The position numbers and the translations under genes are program-made. This document shows, one piece after another, positions 50,927-51,010 of a DNA stretch of 64,000 nucleotides. Source of the DNA: a virus. Its lineage: Duplodnaviria > Heunggongvirae > Uroviricota > Caudoviricetes. The stretch lies in the IMG/VR virus record IMGVR_UViG_3300035498_002028; one strand, 5' to 3'. Under the pieces are notes generated by a model. That model saw only the letters and a program-made list of their open reading frames with translations, was not told where the DNA came from and did no database searches. Every line of letters starts with the position of its first letter. Position 1 is the stretch's first letter.

Positions 50927-51010
50927 CTCAAATCACATAGGTTTTGTTGAGTGAATATATCCTCAACTTCCGGCTGCAAAATCAACCGTTACTCGTCATA
51001 TTAAATGACT
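50927..51010 (-). promoter_or_regulatory. Conserved CRISPR leader module 1 (promoter-like boxes plus hairpin GTTGAG-N10-CTCAAC); possible tracrRNA-like partial anti-repeat
   Basis: About 75% identical to the module beside array 2 (52807-52890). Shared core TCGGCTG.AAATCAACCGTTACTC. Contains gttttgttgagtgaatatatcctcaac, which is partly repeat-like. Confidence 0.55.

Follow-up and report, generated by a model that had tools for sequence, protein, structure and literature searches.

The window analysed here, a 64-kb stretch of a Caudoviricetes phage genome (IMG/VR record IMGVR_UViG_3300035498_002028) with 85 open reading frames (ORFs), carries two related modules that are candidate trans-activating CRISPR RNA (tracrRNA)-like scaffolds, each lying against a small CRISPR array. 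All genes in this region are on the minus strand; read along that strand, a 98-amino-acid (aa) ORF is followed by module 2, array 2, a 532-aa ORF for a Cas12f1/TnpB-type RNA-guided nuclease that is single-copy in the window, module 1, array 1 and a 95-aa ORF. The elements of the locus are as follows.

52888-53184, minus strand: 98-aa ORF, with no match in Pfam or NCBIfam
52807-52898, minus strand: module 2, candidate tracrRNA-like scaffold and leader of array 2; match to the family covariance model at 52771-52883, 98 bits
52639-52806, minus strand: array 2, three 36-nt repeats (GUUUUAGAGCCUUACGAAAUUACAAGGGUAUCAAAC) and two 30-nt spacers
51029-52627, minus strand: gene for a 532-aa RNA-guided nuclease of Cas12f1/TnpB type; JGI annotation 'IS605 OrfB transposase'
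50927-51009, minus strand: module 1, candidate tracrRNA-like scaffold and leader of array 1; match to the family covariance model at 50891-50997, 101 bits
50693-50926, minus strand: array 1, four 36-nt repeats (GUUUUGGAUAUAUCUAAUUUUACAUAGGUACAAAAC) and three 30-nt spacers
50395-50682, minus strand: 95-aa ORF, with no match in Pfam or NCBIfam

The module-distal repeat of array 1 is degenerate, with two mismatches; terminal repeats of CRISPR arrays often are. At 52625-52674 (minus strand; ...GGGUAUCAAAAAGGAGAAUAUAAUG), array 2 ends in a repeat that passes directly into the Shine-Dalgarno sequence (AAGGAG) and the start codon of the nuclease gene, which puts array 2 in the 5' untranslated region (UTR) of that gene; the same layout is present in the related loci L093-L099.

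Each module comprises three stems, an anti-repeat that pairs with repeat bases ~19-28, and a junction motif against the first repeat, while the loop of stem 1 pairs with the last bases of the repeat in a pseudoknot. These parts are listed below with the evidence from which each was placed.

50995-51009, minus strand: module 1 stem 0 (GUCAU-UUAAU-AUGAC); RNAfold and family hairpin enrichment
50971-50988, minus strand: module 1 stem 1 (CGGUUG/CAGCCG); covariation
50977-50982, minus strand: module 1 stem-1 loop AUUUUG, pseudoknot anti-repeat for the repeat 3' end ACAAAAC; covariation
50946-50967, minus strand: module 1 stem 2 (GUUGAG...CUCAAC), with a conserved bulged A; covariation
50933-50942, minus strand: module 1 anti-repeat 1 (ACCUAUGUGA), pairing with UUACAUAGGU of the repeat; RNAfold and covariation
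50927-50933, minus strand: module 1 ATTTGAG, the junction motif directly beside array 1's first repeat; sequence
52881-52898, minus strand: module 2 stem 0, overlapping the stop codon of the ORF at 52888-53184
52857-52874, minus strand: module 2 stem 1, with the pseudoknot loop AUUUGA at 52863-52868
52832-52853, minus strand: module 2 stem 2; fold and alignment
52818-52828 (alternative register 52811-52816), minus strand: module 2 anti-repeat; fold and alignment
52807-52813, minus strand: module 2 ATTTGAG; sequence

In the window, the pseudoknot pairs AUUUUG with CAAAA(C) at module 1 and AUUUGA with UCAAA(C) at module 2, the repeats ending in ACAAAAC and AUCAAAC, respectively. Module 1 is contiguous with its first repeat, the linker being as short as 6 nt.

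Covariation between modules and repeats

A reading of the sequence alone, made before this analysis, had noticed that the two modules align; they do so with 73% identity over 63 ungapped nt. Their repeat-proximal ends are CTCAAATCAC (50927-50936) and CTCAAATTAC (52807-52816), and the distal motif described in that sequence-only reading is also present, although it reads CGGCTG-NN-AAATCAACCGTTACTC with two variable bases (CA vs TC) rather than one. The 16-mer AAATCAACCGTTACTC occurs in the window in these two modules only; its 32 matches in IMG/VR were set aside as chance, none being recognised by the covariance model. Between the shared ends, the reported hairpins are found on the minus strand, module 1 having GTTGAG-gatatattca-CTCAAC and module 2 GTGAG-agattatcta-CTCAC. 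Aligned without an indel (G-U-U-G-A-G/C-U-C-A-A-C vs U-G-U-G-A-G/C-U-C-A-C-A), they contain two truly compensatory pairs, G-C vs U-A and U-A vs G-C.

We fetched ~100 close loci from viral contigs and genomes. Blastn of the locus against GenBank phages gave no match, and a single-protein query against IMG/VR gave none either, so an alignment query was used instead; the close genome matches were Clostridia or Lachnospiraceae contigs. In nearly all of these loci the nuclease gene has one to five mini-arrays around it, to either side and in its own orientation, with repeats of 36 nt, spacers of ~30 nt and the same kind of module preceding each array; the flanking of the nuclease gene by module and array is an arrangement common to ~100 related loci. 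A covariance model built without the pseudoknot found 185 matches in them (1-6 per locus), all on the gene strand, and in the 64-kb window it matches just the two modules (E ~1e-16). No Rfam family matched the module in a search of positions 48000-59000 at E <= 1, which returned only tRNA, transfer-messenger RNA (tmRNA) and weak chance matches.

We counted pairs in stem 1, the pseudoknot, stem 2 and the anti-repeat:repeat duplex, first in a curated MAFFT alignment of 26 diverse module plus first-repeat sequences, and compared them with a control in which the helix partners were slid and with 500 shuffles. In the curated set, 92.1% of cells were paired, vs 29-47% in the slid control, and 21 of the 32 pairs had changed on both sides; there were 136 double-change cells, vs 43.7+-5.3 in the shuffles, a number that none of the 500 shuffles reached (0/500). 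Among 127 distinct sequences the corresponding figures were 92.2% paired, vs 27-47% slid, and double changes in 29 of 32 pairs. Both pairing percentages are inflated, since the structure was derived from the same sequences that were used for counting; this shared derivation does not inflate the double-change counts relative to shuffles, and the excess of double changes, together with the pseudoknot result, is the stronger evidence.

By helix, the pseudoknot formed by the stem-1 loop with the final 5-6 bases of the repeat was 88% paired across the 127 sequences, with all five of its pairs covarying (5/5). Stem 2, the hairpin singled out in the sequence-only reading, was 97% paired, with double changes in 7 of 9 pairs, and the 12-pair anti-repeat:repeat helix was 90% paired, with double changes in 11; the check across homologous loci that had been proposed for the hairpin thus came out in its favour. 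The segment that follows the hairpin in related loci is the reverse complement of the 3' half of its own repeat and varies along with it, CTATGT occurring with ACATAG, CTGTGT with ACACAG and TCATGTAATTT with AAATTACATGG. Likewise, the stem-1 loop tracks the 3' end of the repeat: a loop of ATTTTG goes with a repeat ending in CAAAAC, ACCTTT with AAAGG, and ATTCAG with CTGAAC. G-U pairs are numerous, and read from the opposite strand they would turn into A-C mismatches, so the functional strand is the gene (minus) strand.

Folding of module 1 with its first repeat in RNAfold recovered stems 0, 1 and 2 and a 10-bp duplex unaided (z = -4.1). Family support for stem 0 is moderate: hairpins at its position have a mean minimum free energy of -3.3 vs -1.5 kcal/mol in shuffles. 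A candidate -10 box upstream of stem 1, TAATAT, was discarded as part of stem 0. Just upstream of stem 0, the palindrome GGAGTAGATATTCTACTCT (51017-51035) overlaps the stop codon of the nuclease gene; a scan scored it as terminator-like on the plus strand, and on the minus strand it forms a 7-bp hairpin without a U-run, which could be a processing site or a barrier.

The sequence-only reading had pointed to partial identity between the module and the adjacent repeat (GTTTTGT...ATATATCC.CAAC), which it suggested could be either a degenerate leader-proximal repeat or an anti-repeat. The identity exists, but in module 1 only and as a local coincidence: in the family, the 8-nt word shared by module 1 and its repeat is an outlier, and the distributions for a module's own repeat and for other repeats are equal, so that a degenerate repeat is not supported. 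An anti-repeat is indeed present beside each array, although in other nucleotides than those named, since the named segment carries the repeat's own sequence in the same orientation and is therefore not its complement.

In some loci the linker before the repeat is long (L043:2198-2323, L047:2084-2212, L098:3665-3794 and others) and forms a second anti-repeat stretch against the repeat 5' half, giving a nearly full-length bulged duplex on which RNase III might act; L109 has two tandem copies of the anti-repeat GTATGTAATTT.

A candidate scaffold for a Cas12f-type nuclease

The 532-aa protein encoded between the arrays matches the NCBIfam guided_TnpB model (6e-50) and Pfam Cas12f1-like_TNB (7.5e-23); it also matches the Cas12f2 model at 1.4e-37, below that model's cutoff (129.7 vs 450). 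Its best solved relative is CnCas12f1 (8HR5, 9e-68), followed by RhCas12f, Al3Cas12f, OsCas12f, AsCas12f and Un1Cas12f1, with identities of the structure entries taken from PMC13186708. No sequence match to solved Cas12f structures was found for the N-terminal 250 residues. Across 30 homologues, RuvC residues D320, E418 and D498 and the cysteines of the zinc finger vary little or not at all, giving the protein the RuvC triad and zinc-finger/TNB domain of a Cas12f effector at a size within the 400-700 aa range. More than 1200 members of this nuclease family are found at E <= 1e-3, many of them on 120-230 kb contigs, and where the sources name them they are called 'IS605 OrfB family transposase'.

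Cas12f needs a tracrRNA, whose coding sequence usually lies between nuclease gene and array (10.1101/2023.02.03.527072), and Cas12 tracrRNAs typically form a pseudoknot with the repeat 3' end, AAAC:UUUG (10.1101/2025.01.20.633832). Since the module has these properties of placement and of a pseudoknot onto the repeat 3' end, we read it as the scaffold RNA of a type V-F1-like system. The suggestion of the sequence-only reading, a conserved, structure-selected RNA of tracrRNA type, is upheld by covariation in the 127 distinct modules and by the neighbouring Cas12f1-type gene. From this comparative evidence, we put at about 80% the probability that the modules are tracrRNA-like scaffolds of a phage type V-F1-like CRISPR-Cas12f system, each pairing with the repeats of its own array.

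A minus-strand transcript would then carry, in order, the 98-aa ORF, module 2, array 2, the cas12f-like gene, module 1 and array 1. As covariation shows, the module RNA folds into stems 0, 1 and 2 and pairs with the 3' half of the repeat in an anti-repeat duplex of 10-12 bp, while the stem-1 loop forms a pseudoknot of ~5 bp with the last repeat bases, next to the spacer. The resulting handle would be bound by the Cas12f-type nuclease, with the downstream spacer as its guide. In cis with the first repeat, the module may make a natural single-guide-like RNA, and after processing it could act in trans with later repeats; the system would act by cutting the DNA of rival Lachnospiraceae phages. That the RNA is transcribed and processed, that the effector binds it and that DNA is cut are inferred steps.

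Some related loci hold fused, single-guide-like units without ATTTGAG and the repeat 5' half (L124:4083-4172, L124:2271-2369, L093:3667-3740, L091:3818-3903, L037:1790-1898 and L080:2246-2345). Stems 1 and 2 are retained in such units, as are the duplex and the pseudoknot, for instance at L124:4083-4172, L093:3667-3740 and L091:3818-3903. The fused units resemble natural single guides or omega-RNAs, and copies occur in contigs of Clostridium sp. AF37-5 and Roseburia sp.

It is on this point that a non-CRISPR explanation has to be weighed, namely that the modules are the omega-RNA, or right-end RNA, of an IS200/IS605-type TnpB transposon. The protein passes the NCBIfam model of the TnpB family and bears the annotation IS605 OrfB; module 1, like an omega-RNA, is found immediately 3' of the gene, and fused scaffold-guide forms exist in related loci. 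However, true repeat-spacer arrays with differing spacers follow both modules, and spacer gain in relatives is polarised; module 2 is upstream of the gene, and 64 kb hold one gene copy for two modules. No Y1 transposase is among the strongest Pfam matches listed for the 85 ORFs, and the closest solved relatives of the protein are CRISPR-associated Cas12f1 proteins. We therefore regard a transposon RNA as very improbable.

What the guides would target was approached by comparing 172 distinct spacers of the family with GenBank phages. One of the 172 matches eight phages, of Lachnospiraceae, Agathobacter, Coprococcus and Dorea, and the 5' flank of the matched protospacer, ...AATTTTT, is compatible with a T-rich Cas12 protospacer-adjacent motif (PAM); with one matching spacer only, no PAM logo can be drawn. 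The spacers of the window itself had no target in GenBank phages, and an exact 23-nt search of IMG/VR with two of them was empty. A 21-nt match of a foreign spacer to the window (25324-25344) is of low complexity and was judged to be chance.

Several points weigh against the scaffold reading, besides the inflated pairing percentages and the lack of a matching Rfam family. RNAfold recovered the stems of module 2 but preferred the neighbouring anti-repeat register GUAAUU, and the family-register anti-repeat of this module is interrupted, with ~9 of 11 pairs, wobbles included. There is no terminator between module and array, so the module may never be a separate, trans-acting tracrRNA. A promoter scan gave no convincing promoter next to either module; the nearest promoter-like sites on the minus strand (53316-53227) lie upstream of the 98-aa ORF, which fits an operon-style transcript. 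Finally, the T-rich flank comes from a single protospacer and, at n = 1, is weak evidence.

Arrays that resemble type II-A and their phage setting

Both window modules end in ATTTGAG directly before a repeat starting with GTTTT. ATTTGAG is the conserved leader end of group-1 type II-A loci and is needed for adaptation at Streptococcus thermophilus CRISPR1 (PMC5382924, PMC4330368). In the family it is exact in 60 of the 127 distinct modules and within one mismatch in 82 of 84 true arrays; its absence from 2/84 true arrays vs 12/43 single-repeat or fused units indicates that the motif goes with arrays and not with the scaffold. At the DNA level, ATTTGAG plus the GTTT... repeat may have a second role, on weaker evidence than the first, as a type II-A-style spacer-integration site, in which case the arrays would probably be filled by host adaptation proteins.

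The junction raises the question of whether the modules are ordinary CRISPR leaders and nothing else, that is, a promoter and integration signal in which the hairpin is a DNA operator or incidental. The modules do stand in the leader position and end in the motif that anchors type II-A leaders; the module-distal repeat is degenerate, relatives gain spacers at the module end, and module 2 contains the sigma70-like boxes TTGACA-N17-TATCTA that the sequence-only reading had reported. Those boxes, though real, are not conserved: TATCTA matches TATAAT at 3 of 6 positions, a sigma-70-like site occurs in only 15 of the 127 modules, and the boxes lie inside covarying stems, for which reasons, with the failure of the promoter scan in the window, they are probably not the promoter. 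A leader acting as DNA only would also leave the compensatory module-repeat changes and the strand-specific G-U pairs unexplained, and fused forms keep the stems and lose the junction motif. We consider leaders of this sort very unlikely to account for the modules, and a purely type II-A leader with an operator palindrome was dropped because the module covaries with the repeat.

The type II-A likeness extends to the arrays themselves. Of the family spacers, 129 of 172 are 30 nt long. Against published type II-A repeats, first repeats of the phages have a median identity of ~25/36 and the window repeats 27 and 25, compared with a mode of 20/36 in a null that kept the repeat ends fixed, whereas the repeats of more distant bacterial Cas12f loci reach 12-19/36 and those loci are without ATTTGAG. 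Spacer sets are nested in related phages, L093 within L095 within L096, with additions at the module end; since the spacers of L033 are identical to those of the window, spacer gain was read from the related phages. Different arrays also took up one and the same protospacer region independently, with offsets of 3-4 nt and in one case in reverse orientation; the loci behind these observations are L093, L095, L096 and L099 (about 1990-2260), L107:2071-2100, L097 and L100. No cas9, cas1, cas2 or csn2 is among the strongest PADLOC and Pfam matches listed, those of the top 25 families, for the 85 window ORFs.

Taken together, the type II-A junction, the type II-A-like repeats, the spacer gain at the module end and the lack of adaptation genes among the listed matches suggest arrays of type II-A style into which host machinery inserts the spacers in trans, for which plasmid type IV-A systems offer a precedent of in-trans adaptation (PMC11656645). 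A more specific proposal, which we hold as tentative and on balance doubtful, is that a TnpB-derived Cas12f has been fitted to type II-A-style arrays through one cognate scaffold each, while host Cas1-Cas2-Csn2/Cas9 inserts the spacers; with no adaptation genes in the phage sequence seen, insertion would have to be in trans. The same transcripts might then be readable both by host Cas9, as spacer plus downstream repeat, and by phage Cas12f, as upstream repeat plus spacer.

Modules and arrays might, on the other hand, serve a host type II-A Cas9 outright, as a mimic of the Cas9 tracrRNA or as an RNA anti-CRISPR decoy. The repeat identities of 27/36 and 25/36 against the null mode and the similar leader end are in keeping with this, and there are known cases of viral mini-arrays and repeat decoys exploiting host systems (PMC11656645). 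The covarying pairs, however, lie in the repeat 3' half and in its last bases by the downstream spacer, which is the type V geometry (repeat-spacer) and not that of type II (spacer-repeat 5' half), and the module is strictly linked to a Cas12f-type gene in ~100 loci; service to a host Cas9 is highly unlikely. We give still less credence to a cis-regulatory RNA, an attenuator or processing signal of the nuclease operon with no part in guide scaffolding, because although array 2 and module 2 belong to the nuclease gene's 5' UTR, where the ribosome-binding site is overlapped by the last repeat, module 1 has the same architecture downstream of the gene, and pairing at the repeat 3' end by each spacer is without obvious regulatory logic and matches Cas12 guide RNAs (10.1101/2025.01.20.633832).

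The window, at ~33% G+C, has genes for replication, for many methyltransferases, for tRNAs and for a tmRNA, and seems to be a segment of a large phage. The 98-aa and 95-aa ORFs bracket the CRISPR unit and both recur in L033, a second sample of the same phage; they could encode regulators or accessory proteins. A replication module comprises Pol III alpha, DnaB, primase and NAD ligase. Genes of anti-defence type are abundant: three C5 cytosine methylases, two Dam-type methylases and one N4/N6 methylase, together with a protein with a Tad2-like (anti-Thoeris) domain, an ADP-ribosylglycohydrolase and HNH/NUMOD homing endonucleases.

The tRNAs are for Lys, Trp, Gln, Leu and Phe, and the tmRNA is complete, with the tag ANTELKAVA (77.7 bits); the tRNA and tmRNA coordinates are 57531-58431 (minus), 48917-48999 (minus) and 25821-25894 (plus). 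Two tRNA-like elements not called by ARAGORN, at 50126-50193 and 57502-57564 (both minus), match YrlA, a Y RNA-like family, weakly, at 31 and 30 bits where the gathering score is 69. The motif AGAAGGATG-N9-AGCC has eight copies, all on the plus strand and so antisense to the genes, and only in intergenic sequence between 50 and 57.4 kb (50066-50087, 50207-50228, 50301-50322, 53264-53285, 54812-54833, 57138-57159, 57247-57268 and 57343-57364); 1.06 would be expected by chance, and 0 of 100 shuffles reached eight. Its copies flank the tRNA-like element at 50126-50193 and adjoin the tRNA cluster, and on the coding strand it reads GGCT-N9-CATCCTTCT, resembling an anti-Shine-Dalgarno sequence.

Significance and comparison with known systems

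If the scaffold reading is right, an abundant and uncharted family of phage-encoded CRISPR-Cas12f systems has been carried in the sources under the label 'IS605 OrfB transposase'. Its guide-RNA architecture can be read directly from covariation, which would provide ready-made single-guide designs for a 532-aa nuclease, and the two scaffold/repeat sets of the window, differing in their pseudoknot bases, may be partly orthogonal. The family also bears on the evolutionary question of how TnpB-derived nucleases that lack Cas1/Cas2 come by their arrays and acquire further spacers: the integration signature of type II-A and polarised spacer gain make in-trans adaptation by another CRISPR type directly testable, and such adaptation, if true, would be viral cross-type hijacking and a living example of a TnpB-like nuclease recruiting a pre-existing foreign array. 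That at least one family spacer targets other gut phages of the Lachnospiraceae group points to phage-versus-phage warfare in the gut.

The nearest known counterparts are the type V-F1 Cas12f guides, those of CnCas12f1 (8HR5), Un1Cas12f1, AsCas12f, OsCas12f and RhCas12f. There as here, a small TnpB-derived nuclease has no adaptation genes nearby, and a multi-stem scaffold between gene and array forms an anti-repeat duplex and a pseudoknot onto the repeat 3' end. Here, by contrast, each of the 2-6 mini-arrays of a locus has its own cognate scaffold, arrays are found upstream of the gene as well, the scaffold is contiguous with the first repeat without a terminator, and the repeats are of type II-A style.

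With group-1 type II-A loci such as S. thermophilus CRISPR1, the window shares the ATTTGAG/GTTT junction, 36-nt repeats ending in AAAC and ~30-nt spacers, but a Cas12f-type gene is what its arrays are linked to, and apart from the junction the leader is a structured, repeat-pairing RNA. The order of scaffold then guide recalls TnpB omega-RNAs, as do the fused scaffold-half-repeat-guide units of related loci; indeed, omega-RNAs have been re-formed from a Cas12f tracrRNA and half repeat in Cas12f-derived lineages (Altae-Tran et al. 2023, PMC10691335). Unlike an omega-RNA, the window scaffold is followed by full repeats and exchangeable spacers and not by a single fixed guide.

Virus-borne mini-arrays of inter-virus conflict (PMC11656645) are similar in having 1-4 spacers, and at least one family spacer matches phages of the same host group; in the classical viral mini-arrays all Cas proteins come from the host, whereas this phage brings its own effector and scaffold RNAs. 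Cas12 hacker/Cas12p (10.1101/2025.01.20.633832) is likewise phage-encoded, 500-700 aa long and tracrRNA-dependent, with an AAAC:UUUG pseudoknot, a dependence that is predicted here. It belongs to a different protein family and is rare (12 proteins), compared with >1200 homologues here; the closest candidate chain for it in a PDB search had E = 6e-4, the identity of that chain as Cas12 hacker not being confirmed.

In a limited literature search we did not find the unusual features of these scaffolds and arrays described. The kind of RNA, a Cas12f tracrRNA, is known; what is unusual is one scaffold per mini-array, arrays on both sides of the gene, fusion of the scaffold to the leader, a junction and repeats of type II-A style, and the phage setting.

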